Virus record (IMG/VR): IMGVR_UViG_2671180674_000013 | Length of the DNA stretch: 13,397 bases | Strand: one strand, 5' to 3' | DNA from: a virus | Taxonomy: Duplodnaviria > Heunggongvirae > Uroviricota > Caudoviricetes | Shown: in pieces, positions 1-12,792 of the stretch | How positions within the stretch are numbered: the stretch's first letter is position 1 | Layout of the letters: each line of letters begins with the position of its first letter | The notes under the pieces: model-generated | What the model saw: the letters and a program-made list of their open reading frames with translations, nothing else | Told to the model about the DNA's origin: nothing | Database searches by the model: none | Position numbers and translations under genes: made by a program

Positions 1-378
1 ATGCAGATGAACCCCCAGAATACTCAACCGCAAATAATGAACTATGACCCGAATCTGACGTCGTGCGGACGCATGGCAAAACAAACCGTTCGATTAACTT
101 TCGGACTATGGGAATACCGCGAAACATTCGAAGTTACTGTCGGCGGCAATCTGACCGGACTGGATGTTATCAGTTGCGCTATTGAAAGCCTGTACGCAAC
201 GCTACCTTATGAAGAAGTCAGGGATAAGCGTACTGGGGAAACGGATATCATGGCCACCATTAATATTGGCGAACTGATATGCCAGGATGAAGACCTGTCC
301 GGAGAGCTCTGGCTTGCCGGGATGCTTGTCTCAGCAGAAATTATCAGTATTGAACCCGCTACAAACATACGACTCTGA
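1..378 (+). CDS. hypothetical protein (prophage accessory gene upstream of xis-int module)
   Basis: Open 125-codon frame from ATG at base 1 to TAA at 376-378. No family recognised by eye. The true start could lie upstream of the window. Confidence 0.4.
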   Translation: MQMNPQNTQPQIMNYDPNLTSCGRMAKQTVRLTFGLWEYRETFEVTVGGNLTGLDVISCAIESLYATLPYEEVRDKRTGETDIMATINIGELICQDEDLSGELWLAGMLVSAEIISIEPATNIRL

Positions 379-409
379 AGTTCTCACTATTCAGAGAGCA
401 GGAGAAAAA

Positions 410-652
410 ATGTTCGCTCTGATTAATCAAGGACAACTGTATACCGACAGTGCCGGTTACCCGGTAAAAATTGTTCGCTGCATAAACAACACCGTGTTGT
501 ACAGAAGAATGGACGGGCAAACACAATCGGTAAAAATGAACGATTTTAATGAATCGTTTGAACGGATCGATCACCAGGAATACCGACAAATTCTGGCAGA
601 AACAGAACAGGAAGCTCATCTGAAAAAATTACGTGCCATGAAAAGGAAGTAA
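410..652 (+). CDS. hypothetical small protein (80 aa)
   Basis: AGGAG at 400-404, 5-nt spacer, ATG at 410, stop TAA 650-652. The longer 287-start version in the ORF track overlaps the previous ORF and has no RBS. Confidence 0.4.
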   Translation: MFALINQGQLYTDSAGYPVKIVRCINNTVLYRRMDGQTQSVKMNDFNESFERIDHQEYRQILAETEQEAHLKKLRAMKRK

Positions 653-655
653 AGA

Positions 656-802
656 ATGAATAAAGCGTTTGAGCTATGGGTACGCCAGCGTTACGGCAAT
701 CGCTATGACCTGACGCGAGATGTTGACGGTTTCTACTGTCGCGAAATTGTGAGACGAATGTTTGAAGTGTGGTGCCACTGCCGTGGGCTGAATGTTGTGT
801 GA
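656..802 (+). CDS. hypothetical small Cys/His-containing protein (48 aa)
   Basis: AGGAAG at 644-649, 6-nt spacer, ATG 656, TGA 800-802. Below the ORF-track length cutoff, found by reading. It sits 4 nt after the previous stop, suggesting an operon. Contains C-x-x-x... and C-H-C residues. Confidence 0.3.
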   Translation: MNKAFELWVRQRYGNRYDLTRDVDGFYCREIVRRMFEVWCHCRGLNVV

Positions 803-810
803 GGTGATGT

Positions 811-1020
811 ATGGGACTGGATTGCGTGCCTATATCAACCTACTGCCGCGACGCGGGAGAAACGGTTGATGCCGTTAACAAACGGATACAAAGAGGAATC
901 TGGAAAGAAGGGATTCATGTATTAAAAGTCGACGGAGTTAAAGAACGTTGGGTCGACTTAATGGAGATTTCAAAATGGGCAAGAAAGAACAAGGATCATT
1001 ATCTCTCCCTAGAGGAGTAA
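811..1020 (+). CDS. excisionase-like small DNA-binding protein (Xis-like)
   Basis: 69-aa basic protein directly upstream of and overlapping the integrase start, the typical xis-int arrangement. GAGGTGA RBS lies 5 nt before ATG 811. Family assignment is by position and size, not by a recognised motif. Confidence 0.5.
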   Translation: MGLDCVPISTYCRDAGETVDAVNKRIQRGIWKEGIHVLKVDGVKERWVDLMEISKWARKNKDHYLSLEE

Positions 1021-2147
1021 CTATTCGCCAGCATAAAACTGGCAGCACCCTGGTTATCACTTTTACATATAAAGGGGTTCTGTGTCGGGAACCCCTCTCC
1101 AGAATGGAAGTAAATGCGCGCGGCGTGAAGTACGCCGAGCGTCTGCTGGGAGAAATAAAAAATCAGATTATCGATGGTACCTTCGAATATGCAAAATACT
1201 TCCCCAACTCCCAAAAGCTGGAGTTGTTCGGGGGAGTGAAAAAAAACAAAAATATAAAATCTTACCTGGATGAATACCTGATTATCTGCCAGAACCGTAA
1301 CCTGTCACCATCGACAATTAGAGGTTATGAAAAATGCCTGTCGGCGCTGTCAGCATTGCATAAATTTCATGTATCAGAACTGACACCTGCAGTACTAAAA
1401 AACTGGATCGCCAGCAGAAAAACAAAACTGAAAACTATCCGCAATAATCTTTCATTCCTGCGCAGCGCCATAGATGAAGCGGTGACCGATGGTTTGTTAA
1501 CAATAAATCCTGTCACGCTGGTCAGCGCCAGCCGGTATCACGTATTGGACAACACACCAGGCAGTGATGATTACGAGGTCGATCCTTTTACACCAGCGGA
1601 GACGGCAGCAATCTATGACGCCTGTCATTACCCGGAATGGCGAAATCTGTTTCGCTTTGCCTTTAATACCGGACTGCGCAGCTCAGAATTGTGCGCGTTG
1701 CGCTGGACAGATATAGACTTCATCGGCAACACTGCACATGTCCAGACTGCAAGCGTAGTCGGGGTAATCAAAAGCACCAAAACAAAAGCCGGCACTCGCA
1801 AAGTACAACTGAACAACGAAGCACTGGCAGCTCTTCAGGCACAAAAGCCCTACACGGCGCTAAAAAGCGACTTCATATTCAGCGATCCGAAAACTCGCGC
1901 TCCTTGGGCAAACGCAGATGCGATCCGCAAAAAAGCCTGGGTACCGACCCTTAAAAAGGCTGGAGTACGCTATCGCAATCCGTACCAGACACGCCACACG
2001 TTCGCCACTCGGCACATTAGCCAGGGTGTTAACCTGTTCTGGCTTGCTGGTCAGATGGGGCATAAAGGACCGGAAATGCTGTTCAGACATTACGGCTCTT
2101 ACCTTGCAGAATACGATGGAAAAACGGCGATTTCTGCAACCCCGTAA
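975..2147 (+). CDS. int: tyrosine recombinase / phage integrase (lambda-type, N-terminal arm-binding domain)
   Basis: N-terminus LSLPRGVTIRQHKTGSTLVITFTYKGVLCRE resembles the arm-binding domain of enterobacterial prophage integrases. C-terminus carries R...HTFATRH...LAGQMGH...RHYGSY, matching the tyrosine-recombinase R-H-R-Y box. Start placed at ATG 975 (GGAG at 963-966); the ORF track starts earlier at a TTG (948). Confidence 0.88.
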   Translation: MGKKEQGSLSLPRGVTIRQHKTGSTLVITFTYKGVLCREPLSRMEVNARGVKYAERLLGEIKNQIIDGTFEYAKYFPNSQKLELFGGVKKNKNIKSYLDEYLIICQNRNLSPSTIRGYEKCLSALSALHKFHVSELTPAVLKNWIASRKTKLKTIRNNLSFLRSAIDEAVTDGLLTINPVTLVSASRYHVLDNTPGSDDYEVDPFTPAETAAIYDACHYPEWRNLFRFAFNTGLRSSELCALRWTDIDFIGNTAHVQTASVVGVIKSTKTKAGTRKVQLNNEALAALQAQKPYTALKSDFIFSDPKTRAPWANADAIRKKAWVPTLKKAGVRYRNPYQTRHTFATRHISQGVNLFWLAGQMGHKGPEMLFRHYGSYLAEYDGKTAISATP

Positions 2148-2279
2148 CGGCAAAATTTTTCAAAATGTTGTACAGAATCAGGACGTTACCGGGACAACAA
2201 TATGTACGTAAAATGCACATAATGCCTTGCGTGAAAAAATAAATCGTTCGTATTCAATAAACTATGTGAATCCCGATCA

Positions 2280-2306
2280 CGGGTTCAACTCCCGCCAGCT
2301 CCACCA
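2280..2306 (+). other. attachment-site core: 27-nt copy of the 3' end of tmRNA gene ssrA (ends ...GCCAGCTCCACCA)
   Basis: CGGGTTCAACTCCCGCCAGCTCCACCA is identical to the 3' terminus of enterobacterial ssrA as I recall it. Sequence upstream of 2280 does not continue the ssrA match, so this is a displaced or partial 3' segment, not a full gene. Confidence 0.75.
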
Positions 2307-2341
2307 AATCATGATCCGGATACGTCCGGTGAAGTACAGAA

Positions 2342-2374
2342 AGCCCGCACGGCACAAGCCCTGCGGGCTTTTTT
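2342..2374 (+). terminator. rho-independent terminator (ssrA-type)
   Basis: Stem AGCCCGCA (2342-2349) pairs with TGCGGGCT (2362-2369), followed by a T-run 2369-2374. Confidence 0.7.
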
Positions 2375-2416
2375 GTGTCTGTCATTGTCCGAGAACATCC
2401 GGCTAAATCCAGAGAA

Positions 2417-2472
2417 AATTGGTACACGTTTAGGTACACGCTATACTGTGGTCCATTAAACGTGTACCAATT
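2417..2472 (+). promoter_or_regulatory. putative int promoter embedded in a 16-bp perfect inverted repeat (operator-like)
   Basis: AATTGGTACACGTTTA (2417-2432) and TAAACGTGTACCAATT (2457-2472) are exact reverse complements. A third GGTACACG copy is at 2433-2440. Between them lie a -35-like TTGGTA (2419-2424), a 17-bp spacer and a -10-like TATACT (2442-2447). The RBS GGAAGG (2475-2480) and ATG 2490 follow. Confidence 0.45.
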
Positions 2473-2489
2473 ATGGAAGGGATCCAGAC

Positions 2490-3680
2490 ATGGCGCGTAT
2501 CACACGCCCCCTCACTAACAATGAAATCCTTAAAGCCAAACCCCGTGAAAAAGACTTCACCCTTCATGATGGTGATGGCTTGTTCTTGCTCGTCAAAACC
2601 ACTGGTAAAAAACTCTGGCGCTTCCGTTATCAACGACCGGGAAGCAGCAGCCGCACAAATTTGAGTCTCGGCTCATATCCTGCCCTTACACTCGCAGCAG
2701 CTCGTCAGATACGCGACCAGCACTTAACCACGCTTGCGCAAGGTATGGATCCGCAGCAGCAACAAGAGCAGGCATCAGAACAACGTCAGATTGAGTTGGA
2801 TAGTATTTTCTCAACTGTGGCCGCCAACTGGTTCAAAATGAAGAGCAAAAGTGTCACTGAAGACTACGCTAAAGATATTTGGCGCTCTTTGGATAAGGAT
2901 GTGTTCCCTGCAATAGGCGCGATTCCTGTTCAGGAGATTAAGGCCAGAACGATAGTTGAAGCGTTGGAACCAATCAAAGCACGAGGTGCATTAGAAACTG
3001 TTCGTCGCTTGGTCCAGCGCATTAACGAAATAATGATTTACGCAGTTAACACAGGCCTGATTGATGCTAATCCGGCATCGGGTGTCGGAATGGCATTTGA
3101 GAAACCGAAAAAGCAAAACATGCCGACACTTCGACCAGAAGAATTGCCAAAGCTCATGCGCTCTTTGGTGATGTCGAATCTCTCAGTTTCGACCCGCTGT
3201 CTAATTGAATGGCAACTCCTGACGCTCGTGCGTCCATCTGAGGCTTCTGGCGCTCGGTGGGTAGAGATCGATCTTGATGCCAGGCTCTGGACAATTCCAG
3301 CAGAGCGGATGAAAGCAAATCGAGAGCATATCGTTCCTTTATCAACCCAGGCGTTAGAAATTTTGGAAGTAATGAAGCCTATTAGTGCTCATCGTGAACA
3401 TGTCTTCCCCAGTAGAAATGATCCCAAACAGCCAATGAATAGCCAGACGGCGAACGCTGCCTTAAAGCGGATTGGTTATGGTGGAAAGTTGGTTGCACAT
3501 GGTTTACGTTCAATTGCGAGTACAGCTATGAACGAGGCGGGATTCAATGCTGACGTCATTGAGTCTGCTCTAGCACACTCTGATAGAAATGAAGTTAGAA
3601 GAGCTTATAATCGTTCTACATATCTAGATAAAAAAATAATACTATTTAACTGGTGGGGTGCACAGGTCTATAAGAAGTAA
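2490..3680 (+). CDS. int: P4-family tyrosine integrase (CP4-57 IntA-like)
   Basis: 396 aa. N-terminal MARITRPLTNNEILKAKP...DGDGLFLLV...KLWRFRY and C-terminal HGLRSIASTAMNEAGF...ALAHSDRNEVRRAYNRSTYL match the conserved blocks of P4/CP4-57-type integrases as I remember them. It sits about 180 bp downstream of the ssrA 3' core, as intA does relative to ssrA in E. coli K-12. Confidence 0.9.
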   Translation: MARITRPLTNNEILKAKPREKDFTLHDGDGLFLLVKTTGKKLWRFRYQRPGSSSRTNLSLGSYPALTLAAARQIRDQHLTTLAQGMDPQQQQEQASEQRQIELDSIFSTVAANWFKMKSKSVTEDYAKDIWRSLDKDVFPAIGAIPVQEIKARTIVEALEPIKARGALETVRRLVQRINEIMIYAVNTGLIDANPASGVGMAFEKPKKQNMPTLRPEELPKLMRSLVMSNLSVSTRCLIEWQLLTLVRPSEASGARWVEIDLDARLWTIPAERMKANREHIVPLSTQALEILEVMKPISAHREHVFPSRNDPKQPMNSQTANAALKRIGYGGKLVAHGLRSIASTAMNEAGFNADVIESALAHSDRNEVRRAYNRSTYLDKKIILFNWWGAQVYKK

Positions 3681-3683
3681 ATA

Positions 3684-3705
3684 GAGCCTGCTGAAATGCA
3701 GGCTC
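3684..3705. terminator. bidirectional hairpin between convergent int and cargo gene
   Basis: GAGCCTGC (3684-3691) pairs with GCAGGCTC (3698-3705) around a 6-nt loop. It lies between the int stop (3680) and the minus-strand stop (3713), with T-rich flanks on both strands. Confidence 0.55.
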
Positions 3706-3712
3706 CACTTCT

Positions 3713-6349
3713 TTATTCAGTAAATATTACATCATCAATATTAAAAGACACTTTAAAATTAGGGTAGAGTTTCAATATTACCTTTTCGAAAATCTCATCA
3801 TCATCATTTAAATTTCTTGCTCTTGAATAAAGACGGTAATTATCTTTTGTTATTTGTTTAATTTCGATATGACAAGCATCATTACTATCAAAGCCTCTAA
3901 AGAAGGTAAAACTATCCAAACTTACAGCATAAATATTATTCAAGGCATTTTCGTCCTCAAAGAAGTAAGTTAACTTATAATCCTTATAAACTTCATAATT
4001 ATAGTTCTTAACTGAATTTTTATTCACAAATAATATATAATTACTCTTCTCTATATCAGCATCATTAAATTTTAAAAAACGCCCTCCTGCTTTGACACAA
4101 TTGAATAATTGCTGCTTATATATAGATATGATTCCATCTCCATATAGCCCAGCACTTGATAAATATGAAACATCATCAACCACGCCTAAAAACTCACGTT
4201 TTGATGGATAAAAAATTAGTTCACTTGTTTTATGGCATATAGGAAGCTTGGATAAATCAACATTTAATGTACTAACAAGCCATTTATTTAAATGTAAATT
4301 CACATCTATTTTAAAGCGTAATACAATGTTCTTATCCATTGTCGATTTTATAACTTTTCTCGTAACTTCTTTGCTCTTATACTCCAACATCATATCAAAT
4401 TTATCTTTAATTAAATCCACTTCCCTTTTCACTTCATTATTATCATACCCCATAGATGTTACCATTATATCTAATTCAGGAGACTCACACGCTTTAATTA
4501 GCAGGTGATAGTCGTTAGAACTAAATCCCACCACATCGACTAATTTACGCCAGTCGTACAAGTATCTCAGGTTAAACCCTCTACGTTTTACAGCCAAAAC
4601 CAATAATATAAAGACTAATGCTCTTATTGCATAGTGATATTCTGTAACAGTATAGGCCTCACCTTCCGGGAGATTTCTAATTCGTTGTTCATCTATACTT
4701 GCACGAATTCTTTCTTCATAAGAACCAAATAACATTCCATATAACTCAACTTCATCTGTATAATTAGAAAAGATAGCAAGATCGCTCCACAATTTGCTAG
4801 CATTAATTATCGCATCGATCTCCACGTCACTTTTATTGTCAGTTTGAATTGCGCTCCAACGCATCTGAAGAACAGTTAAAACAAACCGCTGAATTTTAAA
4901 TATAACAGAAATAATTTCGCTAGCATTTCTTTTTTCTAAATTCAAATACTTGACACTAAGATGCTTAGTTCCTGCATTAAAGTACTCCCCCCAAAACATT
5001 ATCGCACTGTAATCTAACTCATTGCATGCAGATTCAATCAACCCTTTAATGACTTCATAATAGTCTGCGTTATCATCGTGATAACTCAAATAACTATTCA
5101 AGGTATCTTCATGATTTTTGATAAAAGCATTAAAGTCATCTCTATTTAAAGAGAGTTTTGCTATCTGTATTATAAATTCTAACGCGGCAGTTTTCTTTCT
5201 AAGATTAACATTCAACTCAGAAAAATTATTCATTAACTCATCAATAGAATTTTTTTTCACATCCGAATTATTTAAATATTGATATGACAGTCCAAAAGCT
5301 ATATCAAAAGGATATGCTGAAACATCCCCATTAACTAAGCATGAAAAAACATTAATAGCATTTCTTATTGACTCTCTGTTATTTTCCAAAAGAGCACTAT
5401 ACAGATAGATGACAACCCCATTAATTAATTCATCATAATGATTAATCACTTTAAATTCATTATCTGTTATTAACACACCAACAATCAAAGAAGAAACTTT
5501 CTTTGATGATTTTTTATCCAAAATTTTTTTAGCCGTATAATTAACTTCTATAGTTTTGCTTCCACTACTATGCAGGTTAATATTTGGCACAATAATTTCA
5601 TATTCATCCAATAAACCTTTTATCTTCATTCCATTTAAAAAATTGTTTAGTTTATGGAATTTCTCTAAATCTATGTCAACAGTCAAAACATTATCACCCC
5701 CATATATCCCTATGCTATATGGTTGTTGCTTTTGCATTTTCATTTTGCCATAAGAATAATATCCATTTGGTAAATCTCTAACTAGATTTAAAATCTTATC
5801 ATGTAATTCAGAGTTAGCATCCTCTAACAAGGTATAACCCTTGACAAGACTTGAGCAGTGAGATTGTAAATACTCAACAGCGAAGTTCTTATTACGTGAC
5901 ATGTTAAATAATTTCAAGTATGTTTTAAAATACTTCAAAAGAAAATACATTGATAGTAATTGTGACACCACATACTGAGCAATACCACCACCAAAAACAA
6001 AAAAGAAGAATGAAATTATCAAGGTTGATATTGCATCAATACCAAACTGCACAAGGTTGATTTCATCCAGTATCTTTTTCCTAATATAACTTTCCAACGC
6101 ACGAGGTGAGGATTTATTAACAGCATCAACAGTCACACTCATAAAAGTTAATGACAACGCACTGATTGTACCGTGTATACCTAAGGAGACCCCCCAAGCA
6201 CTAAATATCCAATCAAACCCCAATTTTTTTAAATCACTAGAATTAGAAAACAACCACCACCACTCATTTTTACAAAAAAAAACAAGAATACATAAAGTAA
6301 AAAAAATAAAAAAACCAGAGATATAACAAAACAATCTTTTACCCATCAT
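3713..6349 (-). CDS. large membrane-anchored protein of unknown function; candidate anti-phage defence / abortive-infection effector
   Basis: 878-codon uninterrupted frame. Strongly AT-rich: a few sampled lines give roughly 20-32% G+C, against visibly GC-rich neighbours. The first ~145 residues contain 3-4 hydrophobic helices (LFCYISGFFIFFTLCILVFFC, FDWIFSAWGVSLGIHGTISALSLTFMSV, FGIDAISTLIISFFFFVFGGGIAQYVV). The remaining ~730 residues are hydrophilic and Asn/Lys/Tyr-rich with no canonical Walker A, HNH or PD-(D/E)xK motif seen by eye. AAGGA lies just upstream of the ATG. Confidence 0.8.
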   Translation of the reverse strand: MMGKRLFCYISGFFIFFTLCILVFFCKNEWWWLFSNSSDLKKLGFDWIFSAWGVSLGIHGTISALSLTFMSVTVDAVNKSSPRALESYIRKKILDEINLVQFGIDAISTLIISFFFFVFGGGIAQYVVSQLLSMYFLLKYFKTYLKLFNMSRNKNFAVEYLQSHCSSLVKGYTLLEDANSELHDKILNLVRDLPNGYYSYGKMKMQKQQPYSIGIYGGDNVLTVDIDLEKFHKLNNFLNGMKIKGLLDEYEIIVPNINLHSSGSKTIEVNYTAKKILDKKSSKKVSSLIVGVLITDNEFKVINHYDELINGVVIYLYSALLENNRESIRNAINVFSCLVNGDVSAYPFDIAFGLSYQYLNNSDVKKNSIDELMNNFSELNVNLRKKTAALEFIIQIAKLSLNRDDFNAFIKNHEDTLNSYLSYHDDNADYYEVIKGLIESACNELDYSAIMFWGEYFNAGTKHLSVKYLNLEKRNASEIISVIFKIQRFVLTVLQMRWSAIQTDNKSDVEIDAIINASKLWSDLAIFSNYTDEVELYGMLFGSYEERIRASIDEQRIRNLPEGEAYTVTEYHYAIRALVFILLVLAVKRRGFNLRYLYDWRKLVDVVGFSSNDYHLLIKACESPELDIMVTSMGYDNNEVKREVDLIKDKFDMMLEYKSKEVTRKVIKSTMDKNIVLRFKIDVNLHLNKWLVSTLNVDLSKLPICHKTSELIFYPSKREFLGVVDDVSYLSSAGLYGDGIISIYKQQLFNCVKAGGRFLKFNDADIEKSNYILFVNKNSVKNYNYEVYKDYKLTYFFEDENALNNIYAVSLDSFTFFRGFDSNDACHIEIKQITKDNYRLYSRARNLNDDDEIFEKVILKLYPNFKVSFNIDDVIFTE

Positions 6350-6457
6350 TCGTCCTTATGTTTTTTGGGTATTGTAAACCAAAGATAAAACCCTCTATGG
6401 TTTTGCATGCCCTGTATATTGATTTGTGTAAATTAGCTCATTACCAATTAGCGCGCA

Positions 6458-6476
6458 ATGCTCTCCCCGCCACGCC
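6458..6476 (-). other. cos-like site (P2/186/P4-type 19-nt cohesive-end sequence)
   Basis: The minus strand reads GGCGTGGCGGGGAGAGCAT. This matches the P2/186-family cohesive-end sequence as I recall it (P2 GGCGAGGCGGGGAAAGCAC, 16/19; a 186-type variant matches more closely). It lies about 170 bp downstream of the psu-like gene, where cos sits in P4. Confidence 0.5.
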
Positions 6477-6576
6477 TGCCCGCTTAAGAGGTCACTTTTA
6501 ATGCAGGTGCATGAACGGCCTCAGACCGCACCGGTACTGGTGTTGCGTGGGATAAAAAATACGGGGATTTGCATGC

Positions 6577-6610
6577 AAAGCCATGCACCTTATGGATGCA
6601 TGGCTTTTTT
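6577..6610 (+). terminator. terminator-like hairpin (canonical on + strand; may also act on the late operon)
   Basis: AAAGCCATGCA (6577-6587) pairs with TGCATGGCTTT (6597-6607) around a 9-nt loop, followed by TTTTTT to 6610 on the + strand. On the minus strand only 3 U follow the stem. Confidence 0.45.
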
Positions 6611-6648
6611 CGGGAAAAATAGCGGAATTTTCGGTTTTTTTTCGCGTG

Positions 6649-7215
6649 CTACCGTGCGGCCAGTTCTGCACGTCGGCGGGTGTAAATCAGGTTCTGTGCC
6701 GGGGTGAATTTCTGGCGATTATCATCCCGCGAAGCCGCATCAGGCCTGAATCCGATAGCCGTTAAAATATCGCTGTCCTGCACGGAATAATTAATTTTTT
6801 CACCTGCGGCCAGCCACACCGACAGGGCTTCACGCAGATAATCAACCGAGTGCTGCATGGCGCTCTGTTTTACTGCGGGAAGCTGTTCGTGATATCCCAT
6901 CAGCTCAGGTGCCAGCGTGGCGGCCAGCTCCGCGCCGTGCTGCTGCATAAAGTCATGGAGCCGGTTGCGGATACTGATGTGCTGCACCTCCTCATGTGAG
7001 CGGATATAGCGACCGGCGGCCTGATTAATTTCCCACTTTTTCACGTCGATATTGTCGCGCAAATCCTGCATTCTGAGCGGGATTTGTTCGTCACCGGCAA
7101 GGAGCTGTTCACGGTATTCCCGTTCAAGGTCTGCCAGTTCGGCTTTACGTTTCAGCCAGGTGTTTTTGTTCGTCTGACAGGCCTCAAAGGCCTGCTGTAT
7201 GGTCACAGTGGTCAC
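6649..7215 (-). CDS. psu: Psu-like protein (polarity suppression / capsid decoration), by position and size
   Basis: 188 aa, last gene of the minus-strand late operon, immediately before the cos-like site. P4 Psu is about 190 aa and occupies the same position (sid-delta-psu-cos). This is not a verified sequence match. Confidence 0.5.
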   Translation of the reverse strand: MTTVTIQQAFEACQTNKNTWLKRKAELADLEREYREQLLAGDEQIPLRMQDLRDNIDVKKWEINQAAGRYIRSHEEVQHISIRNRLHDFMQQHGAELAATLAPELMGYHEQLPAVKQSAMQHSVDYLREALSVWLAAGEKINYSVQDSDILTAIGFRPDAASRDDNRQKFTPAQNLIYTRRRAELAAR

Positions 7216-7230
7216 GTGTCTCTCTCCTGA

Positions 7231-7470
7231 TTAATGCCGGAACGGCGAGCTGTAGCAGCCCTGTACTTTACGCGGCGGCGGTGGCGTCACCGGGGCGGGG
7301 TCGGGTTTCTCCGGTGCGGCACGTATCACACCGTCAACCGACTCGATGGTGCGGAAAGTGGCCGAGCATTCGATATTGGTACACTGGTGATAACGCTGTT
7401 TGACGTTTTCCGACAGATAACGGCTGGTACGGACGTGCGCGGTATTTTTGCAGAACGGGCAGTGAAACAT
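7231..7470 (-). CDS. ogr: Ogr/Delta-family zinc-finger late transcriptional activator
   Basis: MFHCPFCKNTAHVRTSRYLSENVKQRYHQCTNIECSATFRTIESV carries the C-x2-C...C-x4-C spacing and the conserved RTSRY, RYHQC and CSATF blocks of P2 Ogr as I recall them. Single-domain, 79 aa. Confidence 0.85.
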   Translation of the reverse strand: MFHCPFCKNTAHVRTSRYLSENVKQRYHQCTNIECSATFRTIESVDGVIRAAPEKPDPAPVTPPPPRKVQGCYSSPFRH

Positions 7471-7473
7471 GAT

Positions 7474-8217
7474 TCAGCCCTCTGCCTGTTCGTGGGATTT
7501 TTCTGCCAGTTCAGCGGCAAGTTTCATCCGTCTGGCCGGGCTTCTTAACAGCGCCATATCAACCCCGGTTATGACCGGGCGATTCATGCCCGTTACGGAC
7601 AGGACCGGCTCCTGCTCCATATCAAAATGATACAGGGCTGACTGCATATTCAGGGCATCACCCAGCTCGCGGGTCACGGTCGCACGCGGCGAGGTATCTC
7701 CACTCATTTCCAGCGACCGTATACGCAACAGAAAGGCACGTAACAGTGCAGGATTGATACCGGTCAGCGCCTTCTTCCACTCGCTGTTGGCGTAGGTAGT
7801 GAACGCTTTTTCATGGGCGCTGATATAAGCCGTACCGGAGGAGCATGCGCCAAGCATGGCGTGGCTTTTGTCTTTCTCCAGCTCGGTAATCAGACCGGTG
7901 AACTCATCAGCCAGTTCGCGGCTGGCGATACGTTTGCTGTGTTCAGCTTTCAGTTCAGGAGTGAGGTTGCCGCGCAGAGTTCGAAAGCGGCTGCGCCAGT
8001 CCTGTTCGGCCTGTGCGCTTTCACTGAGGGCGGTCTGTCGTTCCTGCTCACAACGCTGAATGGAAGCCTCAATGTCGCTGAGTTTACCCATGCAGGCCGA
8101 GTGTGCGTCTTTTGCTTCGTTAAGTGCGGCCAGCGCACCGGCAATACGTTGTTCCGCGCCTTCATCCTGTTTACTGATAACGGTCTGCATGGCTTTGATA
8201 ATGAGTTCGGGTTTCAT
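7474..8217 (-). CDS. Sid-like protein (capsid size determination scaffold), by position
   Basis: First gene of the late operon, just upstream of the ogr/delta-like gene. Start placed at the ATG complementary to 8215-8217, which has GGAG 9 nt upstream and gives 247 aa (P4 Sid is about 244 aa). The ORF track extends it to 8283 without an RBS and into the putative promoter. Confidence 0.45.
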   Translation of the reverse strand: MKPELIIKAMQTVISKQDEGAEQRIAGALAALNEAKDAHSACMGKLSDIEASIQRCEQERQTALSESAQAEQDWRSRFRTLRGNLTPELKAEHSKRIASRELADEFTGLITELEKDKSHAMLGACSSGTAYISAHEKAFTTYANSEWKKALTGINPALLRAFLLRIRSLEMSGDTSPRATVTRELGDALNMQSALYHFDMEQEPVLSVTGMNRPVITGVDMALLRSPARRMKLAAELAEKSHEQAEG

Positions 8218-8289
8218 GTTCAGGTTCTCCGTATGTTCAACCTGAAATGATTCTGACGCCTCCTGCACAACAACACGATTCATTGCCGT

Positions 8290-8307
8290 TGTCAGAGTGC
8301 TGGCACA
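8290..8307. promoter_or_regulatory. TGT-N12-ACA dyad: candidate Ogr/Delta binding site of the late (Psid-like) promoter
   Basis: TGTCAGAGTGCTGGCACA at 8290-8307. The dyad centre is about 80 nt upstream of the proposed sid-like start, which would place it near -55 relative to a plausible transcription start, as in P2/P4 late promoters. Confidence 0.45.
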
Positions 8308-8385
8308 AACAGACCTTAAAATCAGGCTGGCCAGAGAAAGGTCGCAGGAAAACCTTACTCACCGTTTGTTTTTTTACTTATAACT

Positions 8386-8488
8386 ATTCACCACTGTTCA
8401 CCTTAAATAAAAAGATAAGTAATACAGTAAGTTAAATGGTGAACAGTTGAAGGTCTGACTGTTCACCGTCTGTTCACCACTGTTCACC
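8386..8488. repeat. iteron cluster of TGTTCACC octamers (P4 crr-like alpha-binding region)
   Basis: Perfect TGTTCACC at 8395-8402, 8460-8467, 8471-8478 and 8481-8488. Inverted copy GGTGAACA at 8438-8445. Degenerate ATTCACC at 8386-8392. Confidence 0.7.
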
Positions 8489-8570
8489 CTTCAGTTTTGC
8501 TCTGGCTATATCATTTAGACTTTATTACGATTGAAAACGAAGAATATATAACTAAAAGAGATATTAATTG

Positions 8571-8627
8571 CTGCATTGTAATGCAGTGATTTGCATATGT
8601 TTGCCAGCGTTTGCCTTTGTTTGCCAG
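8571..8627. promoter_or_regulatory. palindrome plus helically phased GTTTGCC repeats in the promoter region of the alpA-like operon
   Basis: Perfect 16-nt palindrome CTGCATTGTAATGCAG at 8571-8586. GTTTGCC at 8599, 8609 and 8619 (10-bp phasing), with TGTTTGCCAG repeated at 8598-8607 and 8618-8627. Confidence 0.4.
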
Positions 8628-8754
8628 AGCGAAAAGTCAATGTTTGTTTCCCCGAAAATCTCACATGACCTGAGGGAAAATATAAACATAATAAGGAGCT
8701 ACCCGAAGCCGGACGGACACGACCGGCACTGTATGGACTTTGTGAGGTAGCCCG

Positions 8755-9021
8755 ATGCACACCGCTTTTTCTTCCCCGTCTTCTGCCCCTGCCGCGCCGC
8801 TGATGCCGGTTTCTGATACCGTTCACGAGCGCTTTATCCGTCTGCCCGAAGTGATGCATCTGTGCGGCCTGTCCCGCTCGACCATTTACGACCTCATCAG
8901 CCGGGAAGCCTTCCCGAAACAAATCTCCCTCGGCGGAAAAAACGTGGCGTGGGCGCAGTCTGAAATCACTGCATGGATGGCGGATCGCATTGCCGAACGT
9001 AACCGGGGCTATGACGCATGA
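8755..9021 (+). CDS. alpA: AlpA-family phage transcriptional regulator (MerR-like HTH)
   Basis: The segment [47 protein letters not shown] matches the AlpA helix-turn-helix pattern (RLP.V....G.SR.TIY......FP.....G...V.W...EI..W). GAGG lies 8 nt before ATG 8755. Confidence 0.7.
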
Positions 9022-9148
9022 TGATGGCCGCTCAGCAAAAAGCCCCTTTTTCTGGCTTGCTTCTTTTCGCCGTTTCCAGGTATAGTTTTCCCGCTGTCGC
9101 AAAATCGGCAGCCGGGATTGGCGTCCCGTTTACAACATTGGCGACACC

Positions 9149-9171
9149 GGACGCGCCTTGCGTCTTTTTTT
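9149..9171 (+). terminator. short-stem intrinsic terminator in the leader downstream of the alpA-like gene
   Basis: GACGC (9150-9154) pairs with GCGTC (9160-9164) around a 5-nt loop, followed by seven T (9165-9171). The stem is only 5 bp, so it is weak or conditional. Confidence 0.35.
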
Positions 9172-9374
9172 GTGTCTATGCCTCAGCGCATCCATTTTTG
9201 ATCCAGAGATTTATCTGTCTATGGATCCTTCGTGTAATGGTGGCTCAGGCGGGGGCTTCTCACGAAGCGCCGGTTTCCAATGTTGCCGGTTACGCCAACC
9301 CCGTCTGGGCTACCACCAGTGAAATTGGCGTTTCCAGTGGTAGCAGTCACATGCAAACATTGGAGGTTGCCACT

Positions 9375-9569
9375 ATGGCTACGACCCTCACCCCGTCACA
9401 CCCGCAGTTTGTCTTTGTGTTTGCCGCCGTTCGTCGCGCAGACCGTAAACCCCGTATTTGCATGCTGCGCACCGTTGCCGGTGACGAGCACGCCGCACGC
9501 CTTTCCCTCGTTCGCGATTACATCCTCTCGTTCGCTGGCCGTCTGCCGGTTGCGGAGGTGCGCGCATGA
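9375..9569 (+). CDS. hypothetical small protein (64 aa)
   Basis: Strong GGAGG at 9362-9366, 8-nt spacer, ATG 9375. The longer 9018-start form in the ORF track has non-protein-like composition upstream of this ATG. Confidence 0.5.
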
Positions 9570-9793
9570 GACACACCACCATTACTGCCCGTGACCTCGA
9601 ATGTCTGGAGCATATGCGCAATGTCGGCCAGCTCGTCAGCGACCTGATGCAGGTGCAGGACTGCGCCACCGTTCGTCGTGACCCTGCGCAGCAGTTACAG
9701 CTCACCTCCGTGATTTACCTCATGACCGCCCAGCTCGACGGCGTGGTCGAACGCTGCAATCAGCAGTGGCTGACCGGGGAGGGTAACGTATGA
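9566..9793 (+). CDS. hypothetical protein (75 aa), translationally coupled
   Basis: ATGA start/stop overlap with the preceding ORF at 9566-9569; acidic, helical-looking sequence. Confidence 0.5.
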
Positions 9794-10110
9794 AAAAGCC
9801 ATTACCACCCGTATTACGCGCCGCGCTGTATCGTCGCGCCGTGGCCTGTGCATGGCTGACCCTGTGCGAACGCCAGCACCGCTACCCGCACCTCACCCTC
9901 GACGCGCTGGAAAGCGCCATTGCCGCCGAGCTGGAGGGCTTCTACCTGCGCCAGCACGGCGAGGAAAAAGGCCGTCAGATTGCCTGTGCCCTGCTCGAAG
10001 ATTTAATGGAAGCCGGACCACTGAAAGCCGCCCCGTCGCTGTCCTTTCTCGGGCTGGCCGTGATGGATGAACTCTGCGCCCGTCATATCACCGCACCGGC
10101 ACTGCACTGA
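9790..10110 (+). CDS. hypothetical protein (106 aa), translationally coupled
   Basis: ATGA overlap at 9790-9793. Directly precedes the primase gene, in the position of the P4 epsilon/accessory genes. Confidence 0.5.
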
Positions 10111-10121
10111 GGGAAAACACC

Positions 10122-12455
10122 ATGAAAATGAACGTAACGGACACCGTAAAACAGGCGTGCGGCCACTGGCCGCGCATTCTCCCTGCGCTGGGTGTGAAGG
10201 TGATTAAAAACCGCCATCAGTCCTGCCCGGTGTGCGGCGGCTCCGACCGCTTTCGCTTTGACGATAAAGAGGGGCGCGGGACGTGGTTCTGTAACCAGTG
10301 CGGCGCGGGAGACGGCCTGAAACTGGTAGAGAAAGTGTTCGGCATGACCCCGTCAGAGGCGGCCGGGAAGGTGAACGCCGTGACCGGCAACCTGCCGCCG
10401 GTTTCCCCGGAAGTGACTGCGGCCGCAGAGGCCGAAACTGTGGCCGACCGCAAAGCGGCGGCCGCGCTGGCCGTCAGGATCATGGAGAAAACCCGACCGG
10501 CCACCGGCAATGCCTACCTCACCCGCAAGGGTTTCCCCGACCGGGAATGTCTGACGCTCACCGTCATGCATAAAACCGGCGGCGTGACGTTCCGCGCCGG
10601 TGATGTGGTTGTCCCGCTGTATGAGGATACCGGCACACTGGTTAACCTTCAGCTTATCAATGCTGACGGTCTCAAGCGCACCCTGAAAGGCGGTCAGGTC
10701 AAAGGTGCATGCCATACCATTGAAGGGCAAAAACAGGCGGGAAAACGCCTGTGGATTGCGGAGGGTTATGCGACCGCGCTCACCGTGCATCACCTGACCG
10801 GGGAAACCGTCATGGTGGCGCTGTCCTCCGTGAACCTCCTTTCTCTGGCGAGCCTTACCCGTCAGAAGTCCCCGGCCTGTCAGATTGTGCTGGCCGCTGA
10901 CCGTGACCTGAACGGCGACGGCCAGAGCAAAGCCGCTGCGGCCGCAGATGCCTGTGAGGGCATTGTTGCCCTGCCGCCGGTGTTCGGTGACTGGAATGAT
11001 GCGTTTATGCAGAAAGGTGAAGAGGCCACGCGGAAAGCCATTTATGACGCCATCCGGCCACCGGCGCAAAGTCCGTTTGATACCATGAGCGAAGCGGAAT
11101 TTACCGCCATGAGCGCCAGCGACAAGGCCTTGCGGGTGCATGAGCATTACGGCGAAGCGCTGGCGGTGGATGCGAACGGCCAGCTCCTGTCCCGCTATGA
11201 AAACGGCATCTGGAAAAATATCCCTGCCGCCACTTTCTCACGGAATGTGGCTGACTTATTCCAGCGTCTGCGCGCCCCGTTCTCGTCCGGGAAAATTGCC
11301 TCGGTAGTGGAGACCCTGAAACTGATTATTCCGCAGCAGGATACACCGGCACGTCGTCTGATTGGCTTTCGCAACGGGGTACTCGATACCCAAAGCGGCG
11401 TATTCAGCCCGCACCATAAATCGCACTGGCTGCGCACGCTGTGCGACGTGGATTTTACCCCGCCGGTGGACGGGGAAACGCTGGAGACTCACGCGCCAAA
11501 CTTCTGGCGCTGGCTCGACCGTGCAGCCGGTAAAAACCCACAAAAACGCGACGTGATTCTGGCCGCGCTTTTTATGGTGCTGGCGAACCGTTACGACTGG
11601 CAGCTCTTTCTCGAAGTGACCGGTCCCGGCGGGAGTGGCAAAAGTATTCTGGCCGAAATCGCGACCCTGCTCGCCGGAGAGGATAACGCCACGTCGGCCG
11701 ACATCGACACGCTGGAAGACCCGCGCAAGCGAGCATCCCTGATTGGCTTCTCGCTAATCCGTCTGCCTGACCAGGAAAAATGGAGCGGTGACGGCGCAGG
11801 ACTCAAGGCAATCACCGGCGGCGATGCGGTCTCGGTTGACCCGAAATACCAGAACCCCTATTCCACGCATATTCCGGCTGTAATTCTGGCCGTGAACAAC
11901 AACCCGATGCGCTTCACCGACCGCAGCGGCGGCGTGTCGCGTCGCCGGGTGATTATTCACTTCCCGGAGCAGATTGCCCCGGAGGAACGCGACCCGCAGC
12001 TCAGGGATAAAATTGCGCGCGAGCTGGCCGTCATTGTGCGCCAGCTTATGCAGAAATTCAGCGACCCGATGACCGCGCGCACACTGCTCCAGTCGCAGCA
12101 GAACTCCGACGAGGCACTCAGCATCAAGCGCGATGCTGACCCGACGTTTGATTTTTGCGGCTATCTGGAAATGCTGCCGCAGACCAACGGGATGTTTATG
12201 GGGAATGCCAGCATCATCCCGCGTAATTATCGTAAATATCTCTATCACGCGTATCTGGCCTATATGGAGGCTAACGGCTACAGGAACGTGCTCAGCCTGA
12301 AAATGTTCGGGCTGGGGCTGCCCATGATGCTGAAAGAGTACGGCCTGAATTATGAGAAGCGGCACACCAAGCAGGGGATACAAACCAATCTGTCGCTGAA
12401 AGAGGAAAGCTACGGAGACTGGTTGCCGAAGTGCGATGACCCCACAGCAACATAA
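10122..12455 (+). CDS. P4 alpha-type bifunctional primase/helicase
   Basis: 777 aa, the same length as P4 alpha. N-terminal zinc-ribbon C-P-V-C-G-G...C-N-Q-C-G, a Toprim-like LWIAEGYATALTVH...AADRD segment, and a Walker A GPGGSGKS (from VTGPGGSGKSIL) in the C-terminal helicase half. GC-rich, with iterons following. Confidence 0.9.
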   Translation: MKMNVTDTVKQACGHWPRILPALGVKVIKNRHQSCPVCGGSDRFRFDDKEGRGTWFCNQCGAGDGLKLVEKVFGMTPSEAAGKVNAVTGNLPPVSPEVTAAAEAETVADRKAAAALAVRIMEKTRPATGNAYLTRKGFPDRECLTLTVMHKTGGVTFRAGDVVVPLYEDTGTLVNLQLINADGLKRTLKGGQVKGACHTIEGQKQAGKRLWIAEGYATALTVHHLTGETVMVALSSVNLLSLASLTRQKSPACQIVLAADRDLNGDGQSKAAAAADACEGIVALPPVFGDWNDAFMQKGEEATRKAIYDAIRPPAQSPFDTMSEAEFTAMSASDKALRVHEHYGEALAVDANGQLLSRYENGIWKNIPAATFSRNVADLFQRLRAPFSSGKIASVVETLKLIIPQQDTPARRLIGFRNGVLDTQSGVFSPHHKSHWLRTLCDVDFTPPVDGETLETHAPNFWRWLDRAAGKNPQKRDVILAALFMVLANRYDWQLFLEVTGPGGSGKSILAEIATLLAGEDNATSADIDTLEDPRKRASLIGFSLIRLPDQEKWSGDGAGLKAITGGDAVSVDPKYQNPYSTHIPAVILAVNNNPMRFTDRSGGVSRRRVIIHFPEQIAPEERDPQLRDKIARELAVIVRQLMQKFSDPMTARTLLQSQQNSDEALSIKRDADPTFDFCGYLEMLPQTNGMFMGNASIIPRNYRKYLYHAYLAYMEANGYRNVLSLKMFGLGLPMMLKEYGLNYEKRHTKQGIQTNLSLKEESYGDWLPKCDDPTAT

Positions 12456-12463
12456 CCTCACTC

Positions 12464-12490
12464 AGACCGGCATCAGCCGGTCTTTTCCTT
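12464..12490 (+). terminator. rho-independent terminator after the primase gene
   Basis: AGACCGG (12464-12470) pairs with CCGGTCT (12477-12483) around a 6-nt loop, followed by TTTTCCTTTC. Confidence 0.6.
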
Positions 12491-12507
12491 TCTGACCATT
12501 GCCACAG

Positions 12508-12792
12508 GGTGAACAATCCACTGTTCACCCTTCACCGTATATTCACCCTGTATCACCATGAAATTATTGATAAAAAACCAGAGGTGAACAGTGTGAATAG
12601 TAAAACCTGAAAAAACTTTTTATCCCTCCACCACATCGCCTGACCGGGCGCATCCAGAGCGAGAAAAAAACACAAAGGTGAAGAGTCGACTGTTCACTCT
12701 TCACCAACTCATCACCATTTATCTTTATGATTTAAAATAGAAAATAAGCATGGTGAACAGTGTGAACAGTTAAATGCAAAAAAACTTTTTTT
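12508..12792. repeat. iteron cluster of TGTTCACC/GGTGAACA octamers with A/T-tract elements (P4 ori-like)
   Basis: GGTGAACA at 12508-12515, 12583-12590 and 12752-12759. TGTTCACC at 12522-12529. Near-copies at 12531-12537, 12541-12548, 12677-12684, 12691-12698, 12700-12705 and 12761-12769. Inverted repeat GGTGAAGAGT (12677-12686) / ACTCTTCACC (12696-12705). A5-6CT5-7 tracts at 12609-12623 and 12776-12792. Confidence 0.7.

Follow-up and report, generated by a model that had tools for sequence, protein, structure and literature searches.

A probable P2/186/P4-type cohesive-end site at the edge of the cargo slot of a P4-like satellite in Escherichia coli

The IMG/VR virus record IMGVR_UViG_2671180674_000013 is a stretch of 13,397 nucleotides (nt), referred to here as the window, which includes a satellite element related to phage P4. 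Between its psu homologue and an open reading frame (ORF) of 878 amino acids (aa), referred to here as the cargo gene, lies a 19-mer that direct reading of the window gave as ATGCTCTCCCCGCCACGCC on the plus strand at 6458-6476 and, as the reverse complement, GGCGTGGCGGGGAGAGCAT on the minus strand. An earlier note, made from the sequence alone, had described a minus-strand 19-mer resembling the cohesive-end sequences (cos) of P2, 186 and P4 between a psu-like gene and a cargo gene, and both the sequence and the position that it gave were correct. The features around the 19-mer are as follows.

6458-6476, minus strand: predicted 19-nt cohesive-end sequence GGCGTGGCGGGGAGAGCAT (direct reading, pattern search and alignment to reference cos)
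6451-6505, minus strand: putative 55-bp cos core, composed of TGCATTAAAA, 19 further bases, the 19-mer and TGCGCGC (alignment to reference cos)
6506-6600, minus strand: putative extension of cos towards psu; TGCA motifs at 6508-6511, 6570-6577, 6584-6587 and 6597-6600
6577-6607, no strand assigned: strong hairpin 3' of psu (folding, -21.2 and -20.2 kcal/mol, z-scores -3.1 and -3.9)
6649-7215, minus strand: psu, polarity suppression/capsid decoration protein (Pfam Psu, E=1e-87; 63% identical to P4 Psu)
3713-6349, minus strand: cargo gene, 878 aa, hydrophobic N-terminus, no known family
2490-3680, plus strand: P4-type tyrosine integrase (Pfam Arm-DNA-bind_3, Phage_int_M and Phage_integrase; 36% identical to P4 Int)

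The minus strand at 6458-6476 is an exact fit to the overhang form of the P2/186/P4 type, GGCGNGGCGGGGANAGCAN (19 nt, G+C-rich). When up to three mismatches to GGCGTGGCGGGGAGAGCAT were tolerated in a pattern search, no second site was detected in the 13.4-kb window. As references we used the deposited genomes of P4 (NC_001609), P2 (NC_001895) and 186 (NC_001317), all of which begin at the left cohesive end; bases 1-19 of P2 are annotated as cosL, and those of 186 as 'cos; top strand cut at 5' end and bottom strand cut at 3' end'. The overhang of both P4 and P2 is GGCGAGGCGGGGAAAGCAC, while that of 186 is GGCGTGGCGGGGAAAGCAT. Alignment to these curated sites gave identity at 18/19 positions with the annotated 186 cos and at 16/19 with P2 cosL and the P4 left end, in agreement with the resemblance described in the earlier note. 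The sole difference from 186 is at overhang position 14 (A in 186, G in the window).

The position of the 19-mer also corresponds to that of P4 cos, as had been proposed. In a blastn search against a phage collection, window 6478-6699 aligned to P4 11401-11623 on the opposite strand. Since P4 base 11623 lies opposite window 6478, the last base of P4 falls on 6477 and P4 bases 1-19 fall on 6476-6458. The 19-mer thus coincides, base for base, with the junction of the P4 genome ends (base 11624/base 1). The distance from the psu stop codon to the predicted cut site is 172 nt in the window and 164 nt in P4.

To compare the flanking sequences, the ends of each reference genome were joined and aligned to the minus strand of the window, including a six-way alignment with P2, 186 and P4. 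Shared blocks were detected 20-29 nt before the overhang, (C)TGCATTAAAA, and directly upstream of it, AAGCGGGC(A/G), while the sequence directly downstream was an invariant GCGCGC, which is TGCGCGC in all but P4. A 55-bp core of the P2-family cos is attributed to Ziermann and Calendar 1990 in PMC5694545. The corresponding core of the window (6451-6505) keeps TGCATTAAAA, AAGCGGGC and TGCGCGC, and is identical to 186 at 48/55, to P2 at 45/55 and to P4 at 43/55 positions; identity reached 52/55 with a P2-like contig bearing the same 19-mer. In a wider set of 182 non-redundant cos regions (83 satellites and 99 helpers), the window matched all 48 positions conserved in at least 90% of the regions, and all 102 positions conserved in at least 90% of the 83 satellites. 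The conservation common to helpers and satellites extends from approximately -124 to +25 relative to the first overhang base, i.e. window 6451-6600, and is strongly asymmetric, with 7 bp only past the overhang on the cargo side.

One feature of the psu-side arm is the repeated TGCA motif, which occurs once more within the core (6502-6505). TGCA at offsets -111, -101, -35 and -29 was present in 90-100% of the 83 satellites and in 66-96% of the 99 helpers in an ungapped register, and the same motifs are visible in the six-way alignment with P2, 186 and P4. These motifs are putative terminase recognition elements, plausibly bound by the small terminase subunit, and would be needed for function. 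We also observed that TGCA/TGCAT motifs hold fixed offsets (-124, -111, -101, -35 and -29) in helpers and satellites, even with the intervening sequence unconserved. In satellites, two of the TGCA motifs fall within the stem of the hairpin at 6577-6607, which is kept in P4 and is followed by a T run on the plus strand. This hairpin probably terminates transcription in both directions and so insulates psu from the cargo slot. A scan of 6250-6750 for consensus promoters and terminators returned no terminator, probably due to the stem bulge and to the U-run being partly drawn into the stem on the plus strand.

We then analysed the distribution of the 19-mer. An exact-match scan detected it in 108 IMG/VR contigs, which were classed by tblastn with Psu, alpha, Int, P2 gpQ and P2 gpP as satellites (83), P2-like phages (16) or unclassed (9). 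The end of psu lay approximately 177-190 nt upstream of the 19-mer in nearly all 83 satellites, and the portal gene lay approximately 190-200 nt downstream of it in most of the 16 P2-like phages, as in P2, with a distance of 1.8-2.9 kb in six. Two observations support packaging by a P2-type terminase, namely, that the whole 55-bp core is conserved along with a further 100 bp or so towards psu, and that most of the 16 P2-like contigs have the identical 19-mer where a cos is expected, ahead of the portal gene. These results suggest that a P2-type helper terminase likely cuts at the 19-mer, leaving 19-nt 5' overhangs. Plasmids with P4 cos have been packaged in trans (PMC2231350), which identifies cos as the key cis element.

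Following the established P2/P4 pathway, a P2-like helper would activate the satellite, which would be excised and then replicated by its own alpha primase-helicase. The helper terminase (homologues of P2 gpM and gpP) would recognize approximately 150 bp, window ~6451-6600, most of which lies towards psu and in which the TGCA motifs keep a constant spacing, and would nick the two strands 19 bp apart, between 6477 and 6476 on the minus strand and between 6457 and 6458 on the plus strand, yielding complementary 19-nt 5' overhangs. The nick polarity was assigned by analogy with the cos annotation of the 186 record. One genome would be packaged per small capsid, the size of which would be set by Sid, and the linear virion DNA would run from GGCGTGGCGGGGAGAGCAT through TGCGCGC into the cargo gene, with its other end just past psu.

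Judged by gene content and order, the element is an intact P4-like satellite of approximately 10.5 kb (window ~2280-12792), compared with 11.6 kb for P4, at ssrA in E. coli. The P4 core set was found in P4 order (int, psu, delta, sid, alpA and alpha, with CI/C4 immunity RNA) by Pfam, tblastn to P4 proteins and Rfam. In addition to the features given above, the element includes the following.

2267-2306, plus strand: 40-nt 3'-end fragment of ssrA (transfer-messenger RNA, tmRNA), the left attachment site (Rfam tmRNA, partial match)
7231-7470, minus strand: delta, single-domain (Pfam/tblastn to P4 proteins)
7474-8283, minus strand: sid (Pfam/tblastn to P4 proteins)
8755-9021: alpA/vis, remainder of the satellite core
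9018-9569: Ash/Icd region, remainder of the satellite core
9093-9320: isrK and C4-type CI immunity RNAs (Rfam C4, c4-a1b1 and isrK)
9790-10110: cnr-like ORF, remainder of the satellite core
10122-12455: alpha primase-helicase, 777 aa (Pfam/tblastn to P4 proteins)

The ssrA fragment was detected with Rfam; a tRNA/tmRNA gene search of the window returned nothing. In many E. coli genomes, sibling satellites with homology to window 2280-12792 lie directly downstream of an intact ssrA. To the left of the ssrA fragment (window 1-2147), we observed a second tyrosine integrase (948-2147, Arm-DNA-bind_2) and small phage ORFs, and the same arrangement in strain ETEC1732 is the end of a lambdoid-type prophage. 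This arrangement and the duplicated ssrA fragment indicate a prophage and a satellite in tandem at ssrA. On the basis of the gene context, we rejected a P2-like prophage and the adjacent lambdoid-type prophage as the owner of this cos.

Other parts of the element also recall P4. Downstream of alpha (12508-12790), two direct repeats of approximately 114 nt, 71% identical and rich in GGTGAACAGTGTGAACAG motifs, resemble the P4 crr region, in which two 120-bp repeats act in cis and are essential to replication. Repeats of a related motif, GTTCACC, occur at 8384-8488, the place of the origin in P4. Pfam and tblastn to P4 proteins detected no epsilon homologue in the window; the position of P4 epsilon is taken by an ORF of 75 aa (9566-9793, plus strand) that matches no family, in keeping with the published remark that P4-like satellites, though not P4, frequently encode a protein of 75 aa (PMC8628076).

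The 19-mer also bears on the limits of the cargo slot, which the earlier note had placed at 3681-6457. The integrase gene (2490-3680) forms the other edge of the slot, and the G+C content is 27-35% across the slot versus 50-62% in the satellite core. Four sibling satellites at ssrA that share the cos of the window carry four cassettes between int and cos: an AAA ATPase with DUF4435, Drt3a/Drt3b (DRT3), retron St85, and DUF4747 with a hypothetical gene. In pairwise blastn of the window with these siblings, homology broke at 3617-3676 on the int side and at 6447-6451 on the cos side. Since TGCGCGC (6451-6457) is an invariant part of cos and sibling homology resumes at 6447-6451, the slot extends over ~3681-6450; the left edge stands as proposed, and the right edge has to be moved. 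Since the constraint towards the cargo reaches only 7 bp past the overhang, cos also serves as the constant right-hand boundary of a variable cargo (defence) slot. A cos-adjacent defence hotspot of P4-like satellites has already been published (Rousset et al. 2022, PMC9122126; PMC13586616). We also observed that a satellite with a 63%-identical cargo homologue (L234) has a different cos allele, GGCGGGGCGGGGAGAGCAT, at its positions 7872-7890, and that its homology to the window (L234 7898-7935 versus window 6415-6450) is regained 2-4 nt past TGCGCGC (AATGGTAATGAGCTAATTTA). Homology regained right after TGCGCGC indicates that the cargo module and its upstream region abut cos directly.

The protein in this slot gave nothing significant in Pfam, NCBIfam, PADLOC or a PDB sequence-profile search. 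A word-indexed search of 5.8 billion proteins detected two related clusters (94% and 63% identity), and a full HMMER scan of 1.84 billion representatives detected 26 relatives, the full-length ones being 880-960 aa and 21-35% identical. The family matches PHROGs 18005 and 10073, the function of both of which is unassigned. Six relatives were looked up, five of which had an informative neighbourhood, and in each of the five the gene occupies a slot next to cos. Two of these slots are flanked by int and by psu or delta in P4-like satellites (L234 and L237), and three belong to P2-like prophages, where the gene is flanked by the replication gene gpA and the portal gene (L236, L238 and L239/L240). 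The sixth relative is on a short contig (L235), the first bases of which are a cos 19-mer located approximately 100 nt ahead of the gene. The residues that are invariant in the family (W47, W52, H59-G60-T61, G120 and G122) are concentrated in the hydrophobic N-terminal domain. AlphaFold gave a usable model from an alignment of 19 sequences (predicted local distance difference test, pLDDT, 83.7; predicted template modelling score, pTM, 0.67) and an unusable one from three sequences (pLDDT 37). Foldseek of the cargo model against PDB and BFVD returned no match at E <= 0.001, and hhalign of the cargo family against a P2-type capsid protein was negative. Its location, which is the single argument, makes the cargo a candidate anti-phage protein of a small uncharacterized family common to P4-like and P2-like hotspots. 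Elsewhere, six of eight unknown P4 cargos that were assayed were protective (PMC13586616).

Finally, we analysed the alleles at overhang position 14 (window 6463), using a degenerate scan that brought in other cos alleles. Among the matches listed, G at this position (G14) was present in 7/14 satellites and 0/89 helpers (Fisher p = 1.7e-7), whereas T14 was present in 38/89 helpers and 0/14 satellites. The helpers thus carry A or T at position 14 (89 among the matches listed), with the exception of the 16 P2-like IMG/VR contigs with G14. In one-genome-per-species collections, the 19-mer followed by TGCGCGC was found at 48 loci in approximately 40 Enterobacterales species; 41 were satellites, seven had a P4-type int downstream with no psu match in the fetched stretch, and none were helpers. 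Psu at the G14 satellite loci of these species genomes is 43-98% identical to that of the window, and the allele is thus kept even where Psu identity is down to approximately 45-50%. Natural variation among working cos sites affects overhang positions 5, 14 and 19. As compared across these genomes, G14 appears to be mainly a satellite allele, for which shared descent among satellites is the simplest explanation; that it is a satellite-typical cos allele with a function, as opposed to neutral drift, we consider unlikely. If the difference were functional, it could alter the competition of the satellite for helper terminases or the breadth of its acceptance by them, and could lower the annealing between satellite and helper DNA ends.

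Taken as a whole, the 19-mer is very probably the genuine and functional cos of a P4-like satellite in E. coli, as far as the sequence comparisons can tell. An accidental resemblance of a G+C-rich stretch, unrelated to packaging, might be argued from the shortness of the motif, with nothing else in its favour. However, none of 200 dinucleotide-preserving shuffles gave a match to the 19-mer within three mismatches, the flank of approximately 150 bp is in register with P2, 186 and P4, and P4 cos occupies the identical genomic position. Based on the shuffles, the flank register and the core identity of 43-48/55, we rejected chance similarity, the probability of which is close to nil. A different alternative is that the site is cos by descent and a relic, the satellite being no longer mobilizable, either because G14 is left uncut by the available helpers or because excision does not occur. 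Several observations weigh against a functional cos in a mobile element, the absence of G14 from characterized cos being among those that favour a relic: P2, 186 and P4 lack G14, as do the four cultured P2-like phages that gave the best blastn matches (pro483, GCS667, ENT90 and 613R3; A or T). Its absence from all 89 helper contigs among the matches listed means that most potential helpers differ from the satellite at position 14, and none of the 48 hits in species-representative genomes was a helper. One G14 helper contig of IMG/VR had no close counterpart in complete E. coli genomes, so that no named helper with an identical overhang was found, and no helper phage lies within the window. The window also departs from the majority of the 99 helpers at two positions, 6494 and 6489. 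A right attachment repeat was not convincingly found by exact-word search and local alignment, so that the right end at ~12792 is placed solely by the stop of sibling-satellite homology; this missing site, together with the prophage in tandem on the left, leaves the ability to excise not established. In strains E2 and ETEC1732, insertion sequences interrupt close copies of the satellite. In contrast, the copy in the window has intact int, psu, delta, sid, alpA, CI RNA and alpha, and its cos retains all the strongly conserved positions. The persistence of G14 in satellites of approximately 40 Enterobacterales species despite the divergence of Psu argues for purifying selection, the identical 19-mer occurs in 16 P2-like contigs, and position 14 is, like 5 and 19, one of those that vary among working sites. 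A relic of this kind is very unlikely.

It has also been hypothesized that cos serves as a recombination anchor for the exchange of cargo modules (Rousset et al., PMC9122126), a role that would be additional to packaging. The breakpoints with the four siblings fall within 5 bp of each other at the outer edge of TGCGCGC, the L234 cargo homologue regains homology immediately past this motif despite its different cos allele, and relatives of the cargo are neighbours of cos in P4-like as well as P2-like elements. However, this evidence is correlative only, and an equally sharp boundary is expected if the slot is the sole insertion-tolerant place and cos is under strong selection. We regard an anchor role as possible, if rather doubtful.

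The exact position of cos would fix the ends of the packaged satellite DNA, and its presence indicates that a P2-like helper is probably still required by the element and able to mobilize it. The right edge of the slot is set within a few bases (~6450), which should aid the automatic extraction of hotspot cargo. Two leads emerged, namely, overhang alleles that are split between satellites and helpers, and an uncharacterized family of 878-aa membrane-associated cargo proteins seen only beside cos in P4-like and P2-like elements.

Among the characterized sites, the cos of P4, like that of the window, lies approximately 165-172 nt past the psu stop codon and faces a non-essential cargo region and int. 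Both cores have the order TGCATTAAAA, 19-mer and YGCGCGC, and both elements have a hairpin with TGCAT motifs downstream of psu. The overhangs differ at 3/19 positions (5 A>T, 14 A>G and 19 C>T) and the cores at 12/55, and the slot holds gop, beta and cII in P4 but one unrelated 878-aa gene in the window. The closest characterized overhang is that of 186 (18/19; core 48/55), with the flanking CA and TGCGCGC in common; the 186 cos is flanked by orf97 and portal gene W in a complete phage, whereas that of the window is in a satellite. P4 is able to use 186 as a helper despite the overhang differences at positions 5 and 19. The cos of P2 (cosL, cosR) has in common with the window the 19-nt 5' cohesive ends and 45/55 core positions, and the TGCA motifs on its side facing the hotspot genes old and tin are also present in the window. 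It differs by three overhang positions, by a more diverged arm equivalent to the psu side, and by the lack of the CTGGCGCGG block, which P4, 186 and the G14 helpers have. The lambda cos, compared here by its general features, resembles the P2 type in the sequence-specific staggered cut by terminase, the 5' cohesive ends and unit-length packaging. It has a 12-nt overhang of unrelated sequence and a cosB/integration host factor (IHF) architecture, and lambda packages from concatemers, while P2 and P4 package circular monomers.

With respect to the cargo region, the published hotspot of P4-like satellites (PMC9122126; PMC13586616) has, like the window, a variable slot from int to cos/psu with differing systems in otherwise similar satellites; it differs from the window in that the cargo of the latter matches no Pfam, NCBIfam or PADLOC defence family. 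The cos and the cos-adjacent hotspot are ordinary, already published features of P4-like satellites, and the current understanding of these elements is unchanged.
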